A stretch of DNA of 25,009 nucleotides from the IMG/VR virus record IMGVR_UViG_3300038336_000023, positions 1 through 25,009 of that record; one strand, 5' to 3'. Below are positions 3,828 to 19,055 of the stretch, piece by piece; positions within the stretch are counted from its first letter, which is position 1; every line of letters starts with the position of its first letter. The notes under the pieces are model-generated. The model saw only the letters and a list, made by a program, of their open reading frames with translations. It was not told the origin of the DNA and searched no databases. The stretch is from a virus (lineage: Duplodnaviria; Caudoviricetes). A program made the position numbers and the translations under genes.

Positions 3828-4301
3828 TTACTTTAAGCCATACTGGGCCTTATTTTCTAATCTATCTCCCTGAAACATCAGATTAGCGTTAGCCCCTAAG
3901 CCTCCCTCACCTTTATACTGATACATAACCGTATGGTACTGATCGCCGGGGGTTCCACTTTCAGATAGTATCTCGCCTGGTCCTCCGATAATCGCAGTGG
4001 TATCCTCGTATGACATTCCGCTTTTTAGCTGCTCGAATTCGGACTTGCTTATAGTTGGTTTATTTTTAACCGGCTCTGGTGTAGGAGTAGGTGTCGGTTC
4101 CGTTGTAGGAGTCTGGGCGGGCGTCGAAGTCTGCGCAACAGGTGGAGTAGTATTTACCGGGGTAGATGTTGCGCTTGTCGGAGCTTGCGATCCTCCACCT
4201 TTTGCCGCACTTAATATGACTACAATAATTAAAAAGTATCCAAAAATTGCAACGATTTCCTTCCATGTTTTACCTGATCTAAATCCTGGGATTTTACTCA
4301 T
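3828..4301 (-). CDS. Membrane-anchored protein with Pro/Thr linker and DUF3862/BLIP-like domain (possible superinfection-exclusion / lysogenic-conversion protein)
   Basis: N-terminal TM helix, TPTPTPEP linker, C-terminal ISKSEFEQLKSGMSY...GANANLMFQ...KAQYGLK; AAAGGAG RBS. Confidence 0.7.
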   Translation of the reverse strand: MSKIPGFRSGKTWKEIVAIFGYFLIIVVILSAAKGGGSQAPTSATSTPVNTTPPVAQTSTPAQTPTTEPTPTPTPEPVKNKPTISKSEFEQLKSGMSYEDTTAIIGGPGEILSESGTPGDQYHTVMYQYKGEGGLGANANLMFQGDRLENKAQYGLK

Positions 4302-4394: not shown

Positions 4395-4871
4395 CTACTT
4401 ATTGCCAAAAGGCCACTTAAAAAACTTCTTTTTTTCTTGTTGTTGATCTTGCTTTAGTCTGATTAACTTGGTTAATTTTTCGTCATGGGATTTATTATCG
4501 TTAAGTACATCATCTAATTTACCCTCCAATCTCTGCATTTCTTCCTTAAAAATATTTCTCATAGCCTCCATAAATTCGGCCTGCTGATTTGTTATTGAAG
4601 TATCACAGCTGTGTTGGTCTTGAACAATTAACTCAGCAACAGCCCCATATTTCGATTCCAAGACCTCTTTTATTTCTTCCTGTGACTTTCTCTGCTTAAT
4701 AAGTTTAACAATGTCAATAAGTACGTCTACGCTTCTCTCTGAGTATTTGGGATGCCTGCCGGTCTGCTCGTATTCAAAATATTGTAGATACTCATCTCTA
4801 TAATTATTACTGGTGGACATAGGTATTTTAAGGCCGGACTTCTTAACGATGTCTTTCCATGTGTAAAACAT
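4395..4871 (-). CDS. MerR-like HTH plus coiled-coil protein with C-terminal amphipathic tail (pSK1 Par / DUF3967-like)
   Basis: Start MFYTWKD behind GGGAGG; winged-HTH-like N-terminus (GRHPKYSERSVDVL), coiled coil, ends KKKFFKWPFGNK. Confidence 0.6.
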   Translation of the reverse strand: MFYTWKDIVKKSGLKIPMSTSNNYRDEYLQYFEYEQTGRHPKYSERSVDVLIDIVKLIKQRKSQEEIKEVLESKYGAVAELIVQDQHSCDTSITNQQAEFMEAMRNIFKEEMQRLEGKLDDVLNDNKSHDEKLTKLIRLKQDQQQEKKKFFKWPFGNK

Positions 4872-4882
4872 AGCGATCCTCC

Positions 4883-5356
4883 CTAAAGATAAAATTCCTC
4901 CCATTTGGACTCCTGTTCCGGTTTCCGTTTTTCTTTTTTATTTTTAATTTTTTTATTAAAATTGTTATTTTTAAGATTGTTATTATTAGTGTCTCCATTT
5001 TGGGTATCCCCATTTTCCGTATCCCCAAAACAGGTACACGGTGAGATTTCTAAATTTAATGTATAGATATTATGTCCGAATTTATTTTTGTCACCTATAA
5101 CTTGTTCAACACTTATGTATCCATACTTAATCAAAAGGTTAAAATGCTTGTAGTATCTATTTTTACCCATTACCAAATCATAAATAATTTTTGATACGGT
5201 GGGAAAAGCCGTATTTCCTGAACCAGCATAAGAGCAAAAGTAAGCATAGATTGCCTTTGCTTCCGGCGTTAGTCTCCGATCCTGGGCAACAAGCTTTGGA
5301 TACAAGCCATAACCTTTTGAGTTTATGCCTATTACTTTTAAAAAGTCTGATTGCAT
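4883..5356 (-). CDS. Winged-HTH (HTH_36-like) replication-initiator-like protein
   Basis: YGLYPKLVAQDRRLTPEAKAIYAYFCSYAG...AFPTVSKI...LIKYGYI, then a GDTENGDTQNGDT repeat and Asn/Lys-rich linker as in phage replisome organizers; GAGGGG RBS before ATG 5356. Confidence 0.7.
   Translation of the reverse strand: MQSDFLKVIGINSKGYGLYPKLVAQDRRLTPEAKAIYAYFCSYAGSGNTAFPTVSKIIYDLVMGKNRYYKHFNLLIKYGYISVEQVIGDKNKFGHNIYTLNLEISPCTCFGDTENGDTQNGDTNNNNLKNNNFNKKIKNKKEKRKPEQESKWEEFYL
4929..5031. repeat. Candidate origin 1: three 15-bp-period iterons beside an AT-rich tract
   Basis: GTGTCTCCATTTT / GTATCCCCATTTT / GTATCCCCAAAAC at about 4989-5031, next to a ~60-bp nearly pure AT stretch (4929-4988). Confidence 0.55.
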
Positions 5357-5391
5357 AAAAAATATTCCCCTCTTTTCCAGCAAATTCCTAC

Positions 5392-5420
5392 TTGCGAAGG
5401 GAACTCTCATGTGCTAAAAT
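5392..5420 (+). promoter_or_regulatory. Promoter of counter-transcribed RNA
   Basis: TTGCGA-17-TAAAAT with TG extension, antisense to the leader of the 4883-5356 gene. Confidence 0.65.
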
Positions 5421-5426
5421 AATACC

Positions 5427-5501
5427 ACAAATTGAAAGTTTCCTTCGGATGGGCCCTCTGAAAGTGTTGAGCGACCAAACTAAGCACTTCAGGGGGTTTT
5501 G
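5427..5501 (+). ncRNA. Putative ~75-nt antisense (ctRNA-like) RNA to the rep leader
   Basis: Own promoter, no ORF, ends in long hairpin CCCTCTGAAAGTG...CACTTCAGGGGG followed by TTTT. Confidence 0.6.
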
Positions 5502-5553
5502 CTATTTTTATCTATAATATCCTAAATTTCATGTTTTTTAAATAAAAAGTTTT

Positions 5554-5580
5554 ATCCCTCGCGATTTGCGAGGGATTTTT
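5554..5580 (+). terminator. Terminator-like hairpin
   Basis: ATCCCTCGC-GATTT-GCGAGGGAT followed by TTTT. Confidence 0.6.
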
Positions 5581-5745
5581 GTTATAGGTATTTAGTACCA
5601 ATTGTATAGGCTAAATAGTTCAATTATATAATAATAGCCCCGTAATTAAACAAATAATTACATATTGTATATATATAGAGGGGTAATTATCCAAGATACA
5701 TAATACTTCGAAGAAGGGAGGAGTAATCGTTAAGCAAAAAAACAC

Positions 5746-5904
5746 TCACGATTTTTTGCGAGTGCTTGCGAAATCCTTAAGAACTTTAACAATTAAATTA
5801 TTAAGGCTCCTATTATCTTTAGCGGCGATTTGTTCAAGGTCTTGCTTTAGTGTCTTAGGTAACGTGGTGACATATCTTGTATTTTCTTCTGAAATTTTAC
5901 CCAA
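5746..5904 (-). CDS. Ribbon-helix-helix (CopG/Arc-like) regulator
   Basis: TRYVTTLPKTLKQDLEQIAAKDNRSLNNLIVKVL pattern; TTG start at 5904 behind AGGAGGGTG. Confidence 0.8.
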   Translation of the reverse strand: MGKISEENTRYVTTLPKTLKQDLEQIAAKDNRSLNNLIVKVLKDFASTRKKS

Positions 5905-5940
5905 CTTTATCACCCTCCTTAGGTCAATCATAACAGATTA

Positions 5941-5978
5941 ATCAACTATTGACAAGTATCGCATCAACTTGATATAAT
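5941..5978 (+). promoter_or_regulatory. Consensus sigma-A promoter of the agr-like operon, with repeats
   Basis: TTGACA (5949)-18-TATAAT (5973) with TG extension; ATCAACT at 5941 and 5963; ATCAA-C-TTGAT palindrome over the spacer and -10. Confidence 0.75.
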
Positions 5979-6030
5979 AAGGTAAAGTTTAAATGTTAAA
6001 GTAATATAAGGGTAAGGAGGGTAAATTTAC

Positions 6031-6396
6031 TTGAAGAGGATACTGGACTTAAAGAGTATAGTCTTTGCTTGTGTAACATCGGCAGCTTTACTTTATTACT
6101 TAAAGTTAATATTCGATAATGGTAGTTTTACAGTAGATAGCAAGTGGTTGTTTTTAGCATTTGTAATTATGGTTATGTTTTGCTTTGCTTATATGATAGT
6201 TTACATACGAAGGCTGAATAAAACTGTAGATGATATGAAGTTAATGGTTGAAACAATAGTTGAAAATCAACTTGAAGACAGGATAGCGGCAGAGAAATTA
6301 CATAGGAATACCAGGGTTTTGCTTTTAGAGGCAATAGCCGAGGGAGGTTCGAATGGGGGTAACAAAAAAAGAATTAAAGTTATGGGAAGAAAGTAA
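6031..6396 (+). CDS. Two-TM membrane protein with cytoplasmic helical tail
   Basis: AAGGAGG RBS, two hydrophobic helices, then a coiled-coil-like segment; first gene of the agr-like operon. Confidence 0.7.
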   Translation: MKRILDLKSIVFACVTSAALLYYLKLIFDNGSFTVDSKWLFLAFVIMVMFCFAYMIVYIRRLNKTVDDMKLMVETIVENQLEDRIAAEKLHRNTRVLLLEAIAEGGSNGGNKKRIKVMGRK

Positions 6397-6739
6397 TAGA
6401 TTAAATGATTCAACTTTAGCCTATGTGAAAACTTTAGCAAAACAGAAAAAATTAAAATTAATAGAAACCGTACATCACGGATATGATGCTATACTTCTTA
6501 CAAGTGGACTTGAAGTTTACAAGATAGTAGTAAATACAAATGAGTTTAAACTTAACGTATTAGGCAAAAATATGGTTGGAAACGACAAGGATCATTTTCA
6601 CCATATCAAGGACTTCTTTTATAAAGAAGATTCGTGGCTAGAGGCAATCCAATTTGTGGGAGAAATAGTCCAAAAGAAAAGGAGTGAATACCTTTGTCTT
6701 GGCAAACGGTTCTACAGGAAAGCGCGAGAATATGGTTAG
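6353..6739 (+). CDS. Hypothetical soluble protein
   Basis: GGAGGT RBS; 128 aa; overlaps both neighbours. Confidence 0.7.
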   Translation: MGVTKKELKLWEESNRLNDSTLAYVKTLAKQKKLKLIETVHHGYDAILLTSGLEVYKIVVNTNEFKLNVLGKNMVGNDKDHFHHIKDFFYKEDSWLEAIQFVGEIVQKKRSEYLCLGKRFYRKAREYG

Positions 6740-7215
6740 TAAACAGTTGGCTAACAACTTTAACTTATCTAATATGGGTTAAAACAAGTAGTAATATTAA
6801 ATTATCAAAAGGTAAATTGATAATAATTTTTCTTTCATTATCGATTACTCATGCTATATTGAAAACAATAATTCCCGGTATAGCTTTTATATTTTTAATA
6901 TTATTATTTATTTTAATTTCAGTCGCTTCATATAAATTAACAATACTTAAAACTTTAAAAAGCATTTTAAAATTAATGGGCATAATGCTAGTATCTGAAG
7001 TGGTTTTGCATGTTATTGCATTTAAGATTCTAGTCATGCAGGGGAATATTGATAGTGATATAATATTAATAATATCTGGCGTTTTAAACTTATTATTAGT
7101 TTTGATAATTAAAAGAAAGGAGCTGTTAAAAATGGGATTTTTCATATTTGGCGAACCTCAAACAAACACAAAGAAACCTGAAAAGCCAGAAACCGCTACT
7201 AACACCGAGAAGTAA
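6694..7215 (+). CDS. Multi-pass membrane protein (AgrC-sensor-domain-like) with in-frame AgrD-like C-terminus
   Basis: AAGGAGTGA RBS plus TTG; about 4-5 TM helices; no kinase domain. Confidence 0.6.
   Translation: MSWQTVLQESARIWLVNSWLTTLTYLIWVKTSSNIKLSKGKLIIIFLSLSITHAILKTIIPGIAFIFLILLFILISVASYKLTILKTLKSILKLMGIMLVSEVVLHVIAFKILVMQGNIDSDIILIISGVLNLLLVLIIKRKELLKMGFFIFGEPQTNTKKPEKPETATNTEK
7132..7215 (+). CDS. Nested AgrD-like peptide MGFFIFGEPQTNTKKPEKPETATNTEK
   Basis: Internal SD AAAGGAG (7116-7122) 9 nt before ATG; hydrophobic pentamer plus GEP plus charged tail, like clostridial AgrD C-x4-(H/Y/G)(Q/E)P; upstream of the agrB-like gene. Confidence 0.55.
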   Translation: MGFFIFGEPQTNTKKPEKPETATNTEK

Positions 7216-7224
7216 AGTCAACAA

Positions 7225-7255
7225 GATAGGGGCCGTTTCATAGCGGTCCTTTATC
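7225..7255 (+). terminator. Intra-operon stem-loop after the peptide ORF
   Basis: GATAGGGGCCGT...GCGGTCCTTTATC imperfect hairpin with a weak U tract. Confidence 0.55.
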
Positions 7256-7277
7256 ATATCCAAGAAAGGAATAAGTA

Positions 7278-7640
7278 TTGTACGATACAATTTCCAACTG
7301 GATGCTTATAAAATTAATAAAGGTTAAATATGAAAATTATGATAAATATGATTTTTTAATAAGAGAGATTCTGTGCGAAGGCATTACGGCCATTCTTTGT
7401 ACAGTTATAGCCCTTACGATGGGTACTGTAATCGAAACAATCACGGCAGCAGTAATAATCGTCATTATCGGACAGTTAACTCCACGTAAGCACGCTCACA
7501 GCCTTGAAAGGTGTACTATATACTCTACCTTCGCCATAAGCGGAATAGCCTACATTGCAGTATACTTGCAGAACTATATCACGGTAGCTCTGGCAATGGT
7601 ATTTGCCGGAATAATATCTTTAATATTTATTGAACATTAA
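7278..7640 (+). CDS. agrB: AgrB-like membrane cysteine protease (short, 120 aa)
   Basis: HAHSLERCTIYS matches the AgrB H-A-x-S-x3-C catalytic motif (His and Cys 7 apart, as in S. aureus H77/C84); several TM helices; AAAGGA RBS. Confidence 0.7.
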   Translation: MYDTISNWMLIKLIKVKYENYDKYDFLIREILCEGITAILCTVIALTMGTVIETITAAVIIVIIGQLTPRKHAHSLERCTIYSTFAISGIAYIAVYLQNYITVALAMVFAGIISLIFIEH

Positions 7641-7666: not shown

Positions 7667-7706
7667 TGTCGAAGTTATTGCCACTTGTAGTATTAGTTTG
7701 TAAAAT
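7667..7706 (+). promoter_or_regulatory. Promoter with adjacent Spo0A box
   Basis: TGTCGAA (7667-7673) 4 nt upstream of TTGCCA-17-TAAAAT. Confidence 0.5.
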
Positions 7707-7746: not shown

Positions 7747-7968
7747 TTGCTTGAACATGAAATAAAAAAGGAGAAAGAGAAAATGAAAATTAATTTAGAT
7801 ATGGTCAGGCTGGCAAAAGGATTTACCCTGGATGACGTGTCAAAACAATGCAATATTCCGGTTAATATTATTGTGGAAGCAGAGAAAAATCCTGGCGAGG
7901 CCAAGATTAGTATTGTTAAAAAAATGTTACGACTGTATTCAGTCCCGGCAGATATTATATCGTGGTAA
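7747..7968 (+). CDS. XRE-family HTH protein
   Basis: LDMVRLAKGFTLDDVSKQCNIP...EKNPG...LRLYSVP; the start may be the downstream ATG (MKINLD). Confidence 0.8.
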   Translation: MLEHEIKKEKEKMKINLDMVRLAKGFTLDDVSKQCNIPVNIIVEAEKNPGEAKISIVKKMLRLYSVPADIISW

Positions 7969-7973
7969 TAAGT

Positions 7974-8003
7974 AAAAGCACCGTTAATGGTGCTTTATTT
8001 TTT
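7974..8003. terminator. Bidirectional terminator between convergent XRE genes
   Basis: AAAGCACC-GTTAAT-GGTGCTTT with A/T tracts on both sides. Confidence 0.7.
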
Positions 8004-8318
8004 TCTCATAGCTTTTATTAAGTTTTTTATTGTTTCCTTATCTCCGCTATCTAGTAATCTATATTCATCTTCGGTCAAAAGCGATTCTCTGTATTCACTT
8101 TCCCCGATTAACCAATCGAGGGATACGTTAAAAAATCTAGCAAGCTTATACGATGCTCTCATTCCCGGTTCGGATTTACCTTGCTCATATGCATGTATTA
8201 GAGATTTACCAGCGCCAATTACATTACCAATTTCTTCGAGAGACAAGCCTTTTTCTTTCCTTAATACCTTTAATCTTTCCCCAAAAATGTTATCACCTAA
8301 GCTATCTGACGTTTTCAT
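7995..8318 (-). CDS. CI-like XRE repressor (no S24 peptidase domain)
   Basis: FGERLKVLRKEKGLSLEE...YEQGKSEP...LARFFNVSLDWLIG; divergent from the cro-like gene. Confidence 0.88.
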   Translation of the reverse strand: MKTSDSLGDNIFGERLKVLRKEKGLSLEEIGNVIGAGKSLIHAYEQGKSEPGMRASYKLARFFNVSLDWLIGESEYRESLLTEDEYRLLDSGDKETIKNLIKAMRKK

Positions 8319-8386: not shown

Positions 8387-8402
8387 TAGAATTTTAATAA
8401 AA

Positions 8403-8478
8403 AAGTTAAAAATATTTAACTTTATGCTTGCGTGTTAAAAGTAAATGTGCTAATGTAAAAGTATAAAATAGTGAACTT
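8403..8478. promoter_or_regulatory. Lytic promoter with two operator sites
   Basis: AAGTT-N10-AACTT at 8403-8422 and AAGTA-N10-AACTT at 8459-8478 flank TTGCGT-17-TAATGT (8428-8456). Confidence 0.65.
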
Positions 8479-8502
8479 TATAAAAAGGAGGATAGAGAAA
8501 TT

Positions 8503-8706
8503 TTGGACAAAGTAATTAACGCAGGCATCAAGGCTTTAAGGGCAGAGTACGGACTCTCGCAGGCTGACATGGCTAATATTATAGGATGCAGCCTGACAAC
8601 ATACCAATTTAAAGAGACTGGTAAATTGGTATTTAGCATTGATGATGCCAAGATAATTAAAAAACATTTTAAACTCGAAACAATTGAGCCAGTATTTTTT
8701 GATTAA
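8503..8706 (+). CDS. Cro-like XRE regulator
   Basis: IKALRAEYGLSQADMANIIGCSLTTYQFKETG; AAGGAGG RBS. Confidence 0.88.
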   Translation: MDKVINAGIKALRAEYGLSQADMANIIGCSLTTYQFKETGKLVFSIDDAKIIKKHFKLETIEPVFFD

Positions 8707-8721
8707 TTTTTTTTAACAAGA

Positions 8722-8741
8722 AAGTTCAAAATTTTGAACTT
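8722..8741. promoter_or_regulatory. Third operator (perfect 20-bp palindrome)
   Basis: AAGTTCAAAATTTTGAACTT between cro and rha. Confidence 0.7.
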
Positions 8742-8762
8742 ATAAGGAAGTGAGGTGATTCA

Positions 8763-10172: not shown

Positions 10173-10281
10173 CTGGCCTTGGTTCAAACGCCAGGTCAAA
10201 GAATATCACGAACGCAAGCGGGCAGAAAGGTTCCGCAGCCGGTGGAGGTGGATACTCAAGGGAGGGATGGTGAGATTGTAA
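10153..10281 (+). CDS. Small basic protein (42 aa)
   Basis: Manual translation MKNLLLNWPWFKRQVKEYHERKR...; AAGGAGG RBS. Confidence 0.55.
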   Translation: MKNLLLNWPWFKRQVKEYHERKRAERFRSRWRWILKGGMVRL

Positions 10282-11045
10282 TATTAGTTGCAAGTTATGG
10301 CGTAGGCATAGATTCTACAGCGATGTTAGTGGAATTTGAAAAACGAGGTATAATTCCAGATTTAATTCTTTTTGCTGATACAGGAGCAGAACGATCCGAA
10401 ACTTATCAATACTTAGAGTATTTTAATAAATGGCTTTTGTCTCATAATATGCCAATTGTCGAAATCGTTAAATATGTTGATAAAAACGGGGAGGTTATGA
10501 CGCTAGAAAGAAATTGCTTAGAACAAAAAACATTACCCTCTTTAGCTTTTGGCTTTAAAACATGTTCCCAAAAATTCAAAAGTGCGCCACAAGAAAAATT
10601 TTGTAATCATTATAAGCCTTGTATTAAAACATGGGCCAAGGGAAGAAAAGTCATTAAGGCCATTGGATTTGATGCAGATGAAGAAAGAAGGGCCAAAAAA
10701 TATAGTGATAAAAAATATGTAAGTTGGTATCCAATGGTTGAATGGAACTATGGACGTTCGGATTGCGAACGCATTATCACAGAAGCAGGTCTTTTAATAC
10801 CAGGGAAAAGTAGTTGTTTCTTTTGCCCATCCATGAAAAAACATGAAATATTCGAATTGAAAAAAAATAATCCTGATTTGCTGAAACGAGCCTTAAAAAT
10901 AGAAGCAAATGCAAAAGCAACACTGAAAATAATACCTGGACTTGGCAGAAGTTACGCTTGGAAAGATTTAATCTCGGCAGAAGAAAGTCAAATAAAAATG
11001 TTTTGCGATGTGGTCGATCAGACTTGTGGATGTTATGACGGATAG
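10275..11045 (+). CDS. PAPS-reductase-like adenine nucleotide alpha-hydrolase (possible DNA modification)
   Basis: PP-loop SYGVGIDSTAM, FADTGAE, CSQKFK, IGFDADEERR, KSSCFFCP, terminal CGC. Probable non-canonical ATT start at 10275 behind GGAGG; the track start at 10179 has no RBS. Confidence 0.8.
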   Translation: MVILVASYGVGIDSTAMLVEFEKRGIIPDLILFADTGAERSETYQYLEYFNKWLLSHNMPIVEIVKYVDKNGEVMTLERNCLEQKTLPSLAFGFKTCSQKFKSAPQEKFCNHYKPCIKTWAKGRKVIKAIGFDADEERRAKKYSDKKYVSWYPMVEWNYGRSDCERIITEAGLLIPGKSSCFFCPSMKKHEIFELKKNNPDLLKRALKIEANAKATLKIIPGLGRSYAWKDLISAEESQIKMFCDVVDQTCGCYDG

Positions 11046-11932: not shown

Positions 11933-12589
11933 TTGTTAGAGCTTAATGGCTTTTACAATATGGATTGTATGGACGGGATGAAAGAATTTTCTGATAAATA
12001 TTTTGAGTTGGCTATTGTTGACCCTCCGTATGGGATAGGTAAGGACTGGAAAAAAAGAAACAATAACAGAGACAGATATATTGACACAACATACACAAAT
12101 AATTCAATTCCGGATGAGGAATATTTCAACGAATTGAAGAGGATAGCTAAAAATCAAATAATTTGGGGATGGAATTATTACACTGAGTATTTAGGCCCGA
12201 CAAATTACCTGATATTTTGGGACAAAGTAACAAATGGAAGTTTTTATAGCGAAGGAGAAATTGCATACACATCCTTCAGGCAACCATTAAAAATATTTAG
12301 GTATCCGTGGGATGGATACCGCATGGGAAAAGAAACAGGAACAAAAAAAATTCATCCACACCAAAAACCAATTGAACTTTACAAATGGTTGCTCGTCAAC
12401 TACGCAAAAAAGGGCGACAGAATCCTTGATACTCATGCCGGTTCTGCATCATCCCTTATAGCCTGCCACGAATTAGGTTTTGATTATGTCGGATTTGAAT
12501 TAGATAAAGACTATTTTGGCAAAGCAATATATCGCCTTGAAACGATAAAGGCACAAATGGATATATTCGATTTTGTTGAACGGCAATAA
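11933..12589 (+). CDS. DNA N6-adenine/N4-cytosine methyltransferase (beta class, orphan)
   Basis: DPPY, then HPHQKP, then ILDTHAGSAS SAM-binding motif. Confidence 0.93.
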   Translation: MLELNGFYNMDCMDGMKEFSDKYFELAIVDPPYGIGKDWKKRNNNRDRYIDTTYTNNSIPDEEYFNELKRIAKNQIIWGWNYYTEYLGPTNYLIFWDKVTNGSFYSEGEIAYTSFRQPLKIFRYPWDGYRMGKETGTKKIHPHQKPIELYKWLLVNYAKKGDRILDTHAGSASSLIACHELGFDYVGFELDKDYFGKAIYRLETIKAQMDIFDFVERQ

Positions 12590-18275: not shown

Positions 18276-19055
18276 ATGGCAGAAGGTTGGATAAAATTAT
18301 ATCGCCAAATATGGGACAGCGAACTCTGGAAAGAAAGACCTTTTGACAGGGCAAGAGCATGGATCGACTTGATTATGCTTGCCAATTTTGAAAGTAGAAA
18401 TATACTGCTTGGAAATGAAATAATATTTGTCGAGAGGGGCAGTTTTGTCACATCAGAACACAAATTGATGGCTCGTTGGGGATGGTCAAAAACCAAGGTT
18501 CGCTCATTTTTAAACCTTTTACAAAATGATTCAATGATCGTTAAAAAAACCGACCACAAAAAGACCATCGTAGAGGTGCTTAACTACTGCGTTTTTCAGG
18601 ATTTTGAAACCACAGAAGAACCAGAGAAAGACCAGAGAAAGACCAGTAAAAGACCAGTAAAAGACCCAACTAATAATGTAAAGAATATAAAGAATGAAAA
18701 GAATATAGTATCGTCGAACGTTTTCGCCGATGATTCTCTTGAAATAATTTTAGCAAGCGAACTTTTTAATTTAATCCTTGTAAACAATCCAAAGGCAAAA
18801 AAACCAAACCTGCAAACGTGGGCAAAACAATTTGACTTAATTATTAGGATTGATAAGAGAGATATCGACGAAATCAGAACGGTTATAAATTGGACCCAAA
18901 GGGACAGTTTTTGGATGGGGAATATCTTATCGCCAAAAACGCTAAGAAAACAGTTTGATAAACTGACAATCCAAATGCAAAAACAAAAACCAAACGGACA
19001 AGCCAAACCCGAACAAAAAACCTCACCCGACAAATACGAAAACTTTTATCTGTGA
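18276..19055 (+). CDS. Phage replication initiator (replisome organizer)
   Basis: GWIKLYRQI, AWIDLIMLAN, RGSFVTSEHKL; C-terminal FWMGNILSPKTLRKQFDKL as in lambda-O-like C-domains; internal iterons. Confidence 0.88.
   Translation: MAEGWIKLYRQIWDSELWKERPFDRARAWIDLIMLANFESRNILLGNEIIFVERGSFVTSEHKLMARWGWSKTKVRSFLNLLQNDSMIVKKTDHKKTIVEVLNYCVFQDFETTEEPEKDQRKTSKRPVKDPTNNVKNIKNEKNIVSSNVFADDSLEIILASELFNLILVNNPKAKKPNLQTWAKQFDLIIRIDKRDIDEIRTVINWTQRDSFWMGNILSPKTLRKQFDKLTIQMQKQKPNGQAKPEQKTSPDKYENFYL
18616..18707. repeat. Candidate origin 2: five 11-bp iterons plus AT-rich 9-mers
   Basis: AAGAACCAGAG, AAAGACCAGAG, AAAGACCAGTA x2, AAAGACCCAAC (18616-18670), then AAAGAAT(AT/GA) x3. Confidence 0.75.

Follow-up and report, generated by a model that had tools for sequence, protein, structure and literature searches.

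Arbitrium is a phage communication system (AimP-AimR-AimX) in which a cytoplasmic receptor of the TPR type (RRNPP) is encoded beside a secreted pro-peptide. A second kind of peptide signalling, agr, is best represented here by the agrBDCA genes of Staphylococcus aureus, which combine an AgrB enzyme with a His-x6-Cys pair, an AgrD precursor with an amphipathic leader and a ring cysteine, an AgrC kinase and the regulator AgrA, as far as the cited accounts describe it (PMC10482373, PMC10196373). In clostridia, mature signals can be amide rings, which are reached through a cysteine, a thiolactone, leader removal and an S-to-N shift, according to the portion of the report cited (PMC8251862). Phage-borne agr genes have also been reported, and the agr3 locus of Clostridioides difficile phage phiCDHM1 encodes, in the part of that report on which we draw, a 453-residue AgrC with HATPase_c, a 197-residue AgrB and a 45-residue AgrD (PMC3901668). 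Here, we analyse an agr-derived module at positions 5941-7640 of the virus record IMGVR_UViG_3300038336_000023. The stretch that was analysed, called the window, is the whole record of 25,009 bases; the phage itself is about 40 kb long, as judged from contigs of 39.7 and 40.4 kb with the same proteins, so that about 15 kb lie outside the window.

The operon is a real unit of five genes, not four. It is conserved in two unrelated phage lineages, it is mobile, and its unusual chemistry can be tested directly. Our favoured reading, which we put slightly short of an even chance, is that this kinase-free unit makes a head-to-tail cyclic pentapeptide that would be sensed by its own membrane proteins. 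The elements of the module in the window, including its open reading frames (ORFs) and the ribosome-binding site (RBS) of its peptide gene, are as follows.

5949-5978 (+): promoter-like site TTGACA-18-TATAAT with a TG extension, a 12/12 sigma-70 match
6031-6396 (+): ORF1, 121 amino acids (hydrophobicity; homologue in L063), two membrane helices and a soluble tail with EKLHRNTR (His91)
6353-6739 (+): ORF2, 128 amino acids, soluble alpha/beta protein with no hydrophobic stretch (homologue in L063, E 6e-11)
6694-7215 (+): ORF3, five-helix membrane protein of about 143 amino acids (hydrophobicity; relatives), reading on in frame into the peptide gene
7117-7122 (+): RBS AAGGAG of the peptide gene, inside ORF3 and spelled by invariant K-E codons
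7132-7215 (+): leaderless, Cys-free AgrD-like gene of 27 amino acids, MGFFIF followed by GEPQTNTKKPEKP..., with its own RBS and ATG and a predicted core GFFIF
7225-7254 (+): stem-loop between the peptide gene and agrB (z -3.6, 0/200 shuffles)
7278-7640 (+): ORF4, the 120-residue catalytic part of an AgrB with His72 and Cys79 (Pfam AgrB match)

An earlier note on this DNA had described one strong promoter, a protein with two transmembrane (TM) stretches followed by a soluble one, a hairpin ahead of a short AgrB-like protein with an intact H-x6-C pair, and neither a histidine-kinase ATPase nor a LytTR regulator, the whole lying between a plasmid-like replicon and cI/cro. As sequence features, all of these are borne out in the window. 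The promoter-like site is the best of 24 sigma-70 sites, a number at chance level (21.5 expected), and the same TTGACA-18-TATAAT stands ahead of the second copy of the module, in the viral locus L063. The four ORFs overlap or lie close together, each with a good RBS. A hairpin (z -4.6) is found in the corresponding place of L063 too, with the same AGGGGC...GTCCTT base and different upper pairs, a covariation that was judged by eye from two sequences. By attenuation or by stabilising the mRNA, the hairpin would raise the amount of precursor above that of the enzyme. The G+C content of the module is 0.32 versus 0.38 for the rest of the phage.

Compared with S. aureus agrBDCA, the module shares an AgrB family member with His-x6-Cys, a five-residue hydrophobic core with a charged follower and, likely, the sensor part of an AgrC-type protein, as far as the cited accounts allow the comparison (PMC10482373, PMC10196373). 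Set against the same accounts, it lacks the 24-25-residue amphipathic leader and the ring Cys, hence a thiolactone and a second protease step; it has neither a kinase domain nor AgrA, the AgrB of the window clade is short, and two genes are extra. The module would work like agr, yet departs from agrBDCA in leader, ring residue, kinase and regulator. Every AgrB substrate described so far depends, to our knowledge, on a leader together with a Cys or a Ser. The predicted product resembles Rc-AIP1 of Ruminiclostridium cellulolyticum, also an amide-closed pentapeptide ring without a tail, but the amine would attack directly, skipping the thiolactone, the leader removal and the S-to-N shift given in the cited part of that work (PMC8251862). 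Like agr3 of phiCDHM1 as reported in the cited part, the module consists of phage-borne agr genes without a response regulator and with a lower G+C content than the rest of the phage; unlike it, the window module has no ATPase domain and its precursor is leaderless with 27 residues (PMC3901668). With arbitrium, it shares a small phage-encoded peptide of phage-specific sequence. It differs in having no signal peptide and no RRNPP/TPR receptor, in a putative membrane receptor, and in a link to the lysogeny switch that is not conserved. A leaderless Cys-free AgrD was not found in literature screened by titles and abstract openings; most subscription papers and all supplements, where such precursors could be tabulated, lie outside this scope. 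The five-gene unit, its second lineage and its varying cores are new here.

The second lineage came from a pattern for the leaderless GGFYF precursor, which matched nine viral loci: three, of one lineage, with AgrB and ORF2/ORF3 homologues, and six without the module. In L063, promoter, ORF1, ORF2, ORF3, a 27-codon peptide gene, hairpin and a 187-residue AgrB follow each other as in the window. The co-occurrence of the genes in other phages, which the earlier note had proposed as a check, is therefore found for all five, in the same order, in a distant phage. Protein identities between the two are 28, 29, 29 and 31% (BLASTP E 1e-9 to 1e-20), and when the window was compared by tblastx with the 12-kb L063 locus, six of the eight segments fell in the module, the other two being 12-residue scraps. 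EKLHRNTR used as a search pattern gave four matches, namely the same three records and one chance match. L058, L059, L063, L112, L113 and L115 form one lineage, L112 and L113 being identical to L115 over 12 kb.

In L063 and L115, the module sits among tail genes and a homing-endonuclease-like ORF (read from ORFs), and no homologue of the window cI was found in these records, which are 66% and 22% complete. Since, apart from the two scraps, nothing beyond the module is shared over 12 kb and the neighbours in L063 are different, the five genes move together, and the location next to cI/cro is not conserved. A longest contig of 11,166 bases is common to the close relatives P0007, P0013 and P0016, which is indirect evidence of gene linkage. 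Searches with single proteins or alignments found no related DNA in IMG/VR, JGI metagenomes, GTDB contigs, annotated phages or plasmids.

The multi-TM protein ending in an AgrD-like peptide of the earlier note holds both several hydrophobic stretches, in ORF3, and an AgrD-like peptide; it is, however, two genes and not one. Four ORF3 relatives agree with the window up to R-K-E and then diverge. When their tails are read in the +1 frame, they fit the window peptide at 18/21, 12/15, 10/15 and 10/21 positions, and 0, 0, 2 and 13 of 2000 shuffles do as well, in a test that was built on the protein sequences of the relatives (Logan contigs) and not on their DNA. All four could have an ATG or GTG at the same place, behind AAGGAG. 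A Cys at position 2 is impossible in each of them, Ser is possible in one, a small residue is allowed in all, and three allow G-E-P after the core. In L063, the peptide gene is free-standing: its 27 codons (AAAGGAGG, starting with MGGFYF followed by GKP) have an in-frame stop 13 codons upstream, and the sole other start, a GTG three codons up, lies within the RBS. The peptide gene is thus separate from ORF3. Among five close sequences, only the window has the two in one frame. Such a fusion would be consistent with one base having been lost from the spacer behind the RBS; three runs of one study, possibly the source, gave contigs that span this spacer without an indel.

The window and L063 precursors are identical at six of the first nine residues and share the start M-G-x-F-x-F-G-(E/K)-P. 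Residues 1-6 of both are free of Cys, Ser, Thr and Lys, and the ring position is Gly in each. The N-terminal amphipathic leader is absent, the core beginning at residue 2, and the window precursor has no signal peptide. By comparison, 18 chromosomal precursors carry 23-52 residues ahead of the core; these were chosen with a Cys/Ser filter and do not give a frequency of Cys/Ser. Among 24 plausible chromosomal precursors judged by eye, 23 have Cys or Ser at the ring position. Several of the chromosomal precursors use Ser; in that of L019, the ring position is occupied by Asn and the next place by Ser. The chromosomal register is a core followed by x-Q/E-P, and in L012 SILWF is followed by GEP, the start of the window follower. 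The window precursor follows the AgrD pattern, with a hydrophobic five-residue core, x-(Q/E)-P, a charged tail and an adjoining agrB, its P-x-x-P (PEKP) coming later than usual. In the same way as in AgrD, the core varies and the follower is kept among the phage relatives. A strict peptide pattern had no match in viral sequences, a looser one had 13, none with AgrB nearby, and in metagenomes none of 45 matches had AgrB.

Whether positions 7278-7640 encode an AgrB, one of the points on which the earlier note hung its proposal, was answered by Pfam: ORF4 matches AgrB (PF04647) with E 1.6e-8 and 34.6 bits against a gathering cut-off of 23, over profile positions 4-118 of 185. L063 has a full-length AgrB of 187 residues (79.8 bits, motif LRIFSGGVH). 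A search of 1.84 billion representatives gave nine matches, the window clade and eight AgrBs of 125-209 residues with 22-33% identity. His72 and Cys79 are invariant in all 12 aligned AgrB-like sequences. The motif R-x3-GG-x-H is present in L063, in three of the eight distant matches and in 33/33 chromosomal AgrBs, a non-random set made up of three from one genome plus the best 30 loci among the matches found in 97 of 401 genomes. Four of four close sequences share the same end at 119-120 residues with 73-76% identity. Other short AgrBs have 154 residues in the chromosomal loci L035 and L041 (no precursor listed) and 125 residues, with the canonical motif, in P0031. ORF1 and ORF3 were considered as a missing half of AgrB and set aside, neither having any profile likeness to its C-terminal part.

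Split AgrC-type receptors offer a parallel for the membrane proteins. In 19 of 33 chromosomal agrB loci of Bacillota (L016-L042), a stand-alone five-helix protein of 130-170 residues adjoins agrB and is frequently followed by a 2-TM GHKL kinase. The profile of these proteins matches residues 4-154 of two full-length GHKL kinases (E 2e-37 and 8e-28), which carry SPOB_a and HATPase_c in their later part. The ORF3 search gave six matches, two of them self, among 212 candidates, and hence four relatives at 55-62% identity, lower than for AgrB. L063 ORF3 scored 15.3 bits against the five-helix sensor profile (0/2000 shuffles), and the six-sequence ORF3 family aligned with it over 100 columns with a Glu in register (0/100 column shuffles). 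Structure prediction gave five helices at low confidence (pTM 0.27), too poor for a fold search; the ESM Atlas returned Bacillota clusters of 147-153 residues at 0.90-0.91, with a recognition value below the Atlas bar, and the predicted ORF3-ORF1 complex scored 0.00, which is uninformative either way. A profile of ORF3 run over 251 Bacillota genomes found two weak matches, neither a convincing homologue. These comparisons make it likely that ORF3 stems from the five-helix front of AgrC-type kinases, which is their N-terminal sensor part.

ORF1 is built like the other receptor half, two helices with a His about 32 residues on, and EKLHRNTR is identical in L063 despite 28-30% overall identity. 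As in the split receptors of Bacillota, a five-helix protein by agrBD is thus accompanied by a second protein with two helices and a His-bearing soluble tail, which here lacks the ATPase domain. ORF1 would be the partner half of a split receptor. ORF2 is the candidate output protein. In its model (pLDDT 77), two helices are followed by a sheet of five strands and a further helix; fold searches named no family, the best hit, PsiB (Z 7.4), being within the range of common arrangements, and the neighbours included uncharacterised phage proteins at TM 0.5-0.6. Relatives of ORF2 overlap an ORF3-type start in four of four cases (0-7 of 1000 shuffles). In L063, a soluble ORF of 150 residues without a Pfam match lies just ahead of the module promoter (1317-1769), with a helix-strand pattern somewhat like that of ORF2 by eye.

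No HATPase family was found by Pfam in the module proteins of the window or L063, in a scan that detected control kinases, and no LytTR family in the four ORFs. An AgrA-type receiver-LytTR protein was likewise absent from the 36 ORFs of the window, 25 kb of the phage of about 40 kb, and from the L063 module. The module proteins of the window, all below 175 residues, gave no TPR/RRNPP match, and the five gene products no recognised DNA-binding domain.

In the favoured reading, the precursor would be made from its own RBS, and the hairpin would leave it more abundant than AgrB. Methionine aminopeptidase removes the initiator Met when residue 2 is small, and as this is so in the precursor, its Met would be taken off. 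AgrB would then cleave between the fifth residue of the core and G-(E/K)-P, a site placed by the register with the chromosomal precursors, and form an acyl-enzyme on Cys79. The freed Gly amine would close cyclo(GFFIF), an amide ring made in one step; if AgrB closes the ring, the N-terminal amine would have to serve, because the core has no side-chain nucleophile. The hydrophobic ring would exit the cell and bind ORF3; together, ORF3 and ORF1 would make up a split AgrC-like receptor that has no ATPase domain. The EKLHRNTR tail of ORF1 would relay the state through binding or release of a partner, either ORF2 or a protein of the host. The target would likely be a function of the host or of carriage (sporulation, defence and replication are examples) and not cI directly. 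A wider claim, that phages here communicate free of phosphorylation through one-step AgrB ring closure of a leaderless Cys-free precursor, a split five-plus-two-helix receptor for phage-specific rings and a new soluble relay protein, seems to us rather doubtful.

Several points weigh against the favoured reading. Direct amine closure of a pentapeptide is strained, and product, transcript and phenotype are all predicted. P0013 is unable to encode E-P in its follower. Because the six L-numbered viral records named above belong to one lineage, there are two lineages in all, and only one besides the window has DNA. On the receptor side, the ORF3 family-profile match has an hhalign probability of only 7%, window ORF3 alone scores -4.8 bits against a sensor-type profile, no better than shuffles, and the homology of ORF1 to 2-TM kinase fronts is not significant (215/2000 block shuffles equal its score). 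The window-clade AgrB lacks the C-terminal third, about 65 residues, and R-x3-GG-x-H is absent in three of the three members tested. In S. aureus, AgrB R70G has no peptidase activity, signal is missing from mutants of K129-131, and the leader helix of AgrD is called essential in the cited parts of two reports (PMC10196373, PMC10482373). The missing third, motif and leader, set against these requirements, are the main doubt.

The rival readings overlap in part with each other. In one of them, for which the lack of Cys, Ser, Thr and Lys in residues 1-6 of both sequenced precursors speaks, AgrB does no more than remove the follower, and the same sensors receive a linear hydrophobic peptide of five or six residues (GFFIF or fMGFFIF), an arbitrium-like linear signal from agr parts. 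It would also suit a window AgrB without the region whose lysines serve ring formation and not cutting in S. aureus, in the cited part of that report (PMC10196373). This is unlikely, as both lineages keep the five-residue register and the ring-position Gly, all four relatives permit a small residue there, and the L063 AgrB is full length with the canonical motif. Ranking just below it, the peptide may be a mimic or inhibitor of host agr receptors, with ORF1 and ORF3 as decoys or dominant-negative halves of host split kinases. The abundance of split receptors in Bacillota (the 19/33 loci above) and similarly aromatic chromosomal cores such as CWWFF and CIFIV speak for it, and a 2-TM protein that has no kinase part could spoil the dimer of a host kinase; against it, cores differ among the phage relatives and ORF3 is distant from host sensors. 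The earlier note had left communication and host jamming side by side. Its kinase-free agr-derived module is supported, and sequence cannot choose between the two uses, but because membrane and soluble genes are conserved together, a self-contained circuit is favoured over a producer-only jammer.

Direct control of the lysis-lysogeny choice, which the earlier note took from the position beside cI/cro, is less probable again. In the window, the module does lie between the replicon and cI/cro, with a small helix-turn-helix (HTH) gene directly behind agrB. This neighbourhood is replaced by tail genes in L063/L115, so that lysogeny control is left unsupported; moreover, no cI-type operator was found at the module promoter (best other site 8.9 versus 24.6-29.5 for the operator-like sites), the five genes have no DNA-binding domain that could be recognised, and the slot between lysin and cI often holds accessory genes. 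Two further readings, on a par with each other, are slightly less probable still. The window lineage could be a decaying copy with a truncated inactive AgrB and a functionless frame slip, in line with the short AgrB, the lost motif, the fusion seen in the window and the altered follower of P0013; on the contrary, the AgrB end, His and Cys are kept in the four close sequences at an identity above that of ORF3, and reading frames, RBSs, promoter and hairpin are all intact. Alternatively, ORF3 could be a helper of AgrB that takes the place of the absent leader or helices, or that carries the peptide out of the cell. It does directly precede the peptide gene in both lineages, and the precursor has no membrane-targeting leader, but ORF3 and ORF1 are unlike the AgrB C-terminal part, ORF3 also accompanies the full-length AgrB of L063, and its relatives are kinase fronts.

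If the cyclic pentapeptide is made as favoured, AgrB would act as a macrocyclase that joins the head and tail of a leaderless 27-residue peptide directly, and a 120-residue AgrB might suffice for it. This would be useful chemistry for small cyclic peptides. The wider claim, if true, would add both a previously unknown way to ribosomal cyclic peptides and a family of phage signalling distinct from arbitrium. The module is also a compact model for how agr-type signals are read without an encoded kinase or AgrA, and for what phages gain from agr genes.

The surroundings of the module in the window hold the following features; none of them belongs to the shared module or is common to L115, and the two minus-strand genes before the module are read away from it.

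4883-5410 (-): replication-initiator-like gene (family match)
5746-5931 (-): Arc/CopG-like ribbon-helix-helix (RHH) gene (family match)
7783-7968 (+): small HTH gene directly behind agrB (family match)
7995-8318 (-): cI-like gene (HTH family match)
8503-8706 (+): cro-like gene (HTH family match)
8402-8423, 8458-8479 and 8721-8742: three 22-bp palindromic operator-like sites around cI/cro

The stretch is present in four groundwater runs, all of one study. Given the tail, amidase, Rha, RecT, SSB and HNH families found by Pfam among 36 ORFs, together with the cI/cro-like HTH genes, the virus is probably a temperate phage of Bacillota. No integrase family was matched among these 36 ORFs, and no amidase homologue in 251 Bacillota genomes, in a search with an overly strict cut-off. 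On the minus strand (4395-5931), the RHH gene is followed by an AT-rich leader with a two-way terminator-like hairpin (5554-5576) and then by the initiator-like gene, a layout similar to that of copG/antisense-controlled plasmid replicons. As the initiator-like gene is preceded by the Arc/CopG-like gene, a plasmid-like prophage or phage-plasmid is possible. A second initiator-like ORF (18276-19055) has no Pfam match.

The module promoter overlaps a divergent promoter-like site of the RHH gene, and two ATCAAC-led quasi-palindromes (5941 and 5963, 22 bases apart, spanning 5941-5973) overlap its -35 and spacer as well as the divergent RHH promoter. These quasi-palindromes are candidate RHH operators, and with the promoter overlap they suggest that the module may be tied to the repressor of the replicon in the window phage.

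The small HTH gene, for which no counterpart was found in L115, has its own RBS and a promoter-like site (7678-7706) and converges with cI on a two-way terminator (7975-7996). At 3828-4301 (-), a membrane-anchored protein with a DUF3862/BLIP-like domain may be a superinfection-exclusion or accessory gene. Finally, a 288-residue ORF (10179-11045, +) has no Pfam match at E 0.001 and lies upstream of a DNA methylase (11933-12589); it presumably resembles PAPS-reductase-like phage DNA-modification proteins.

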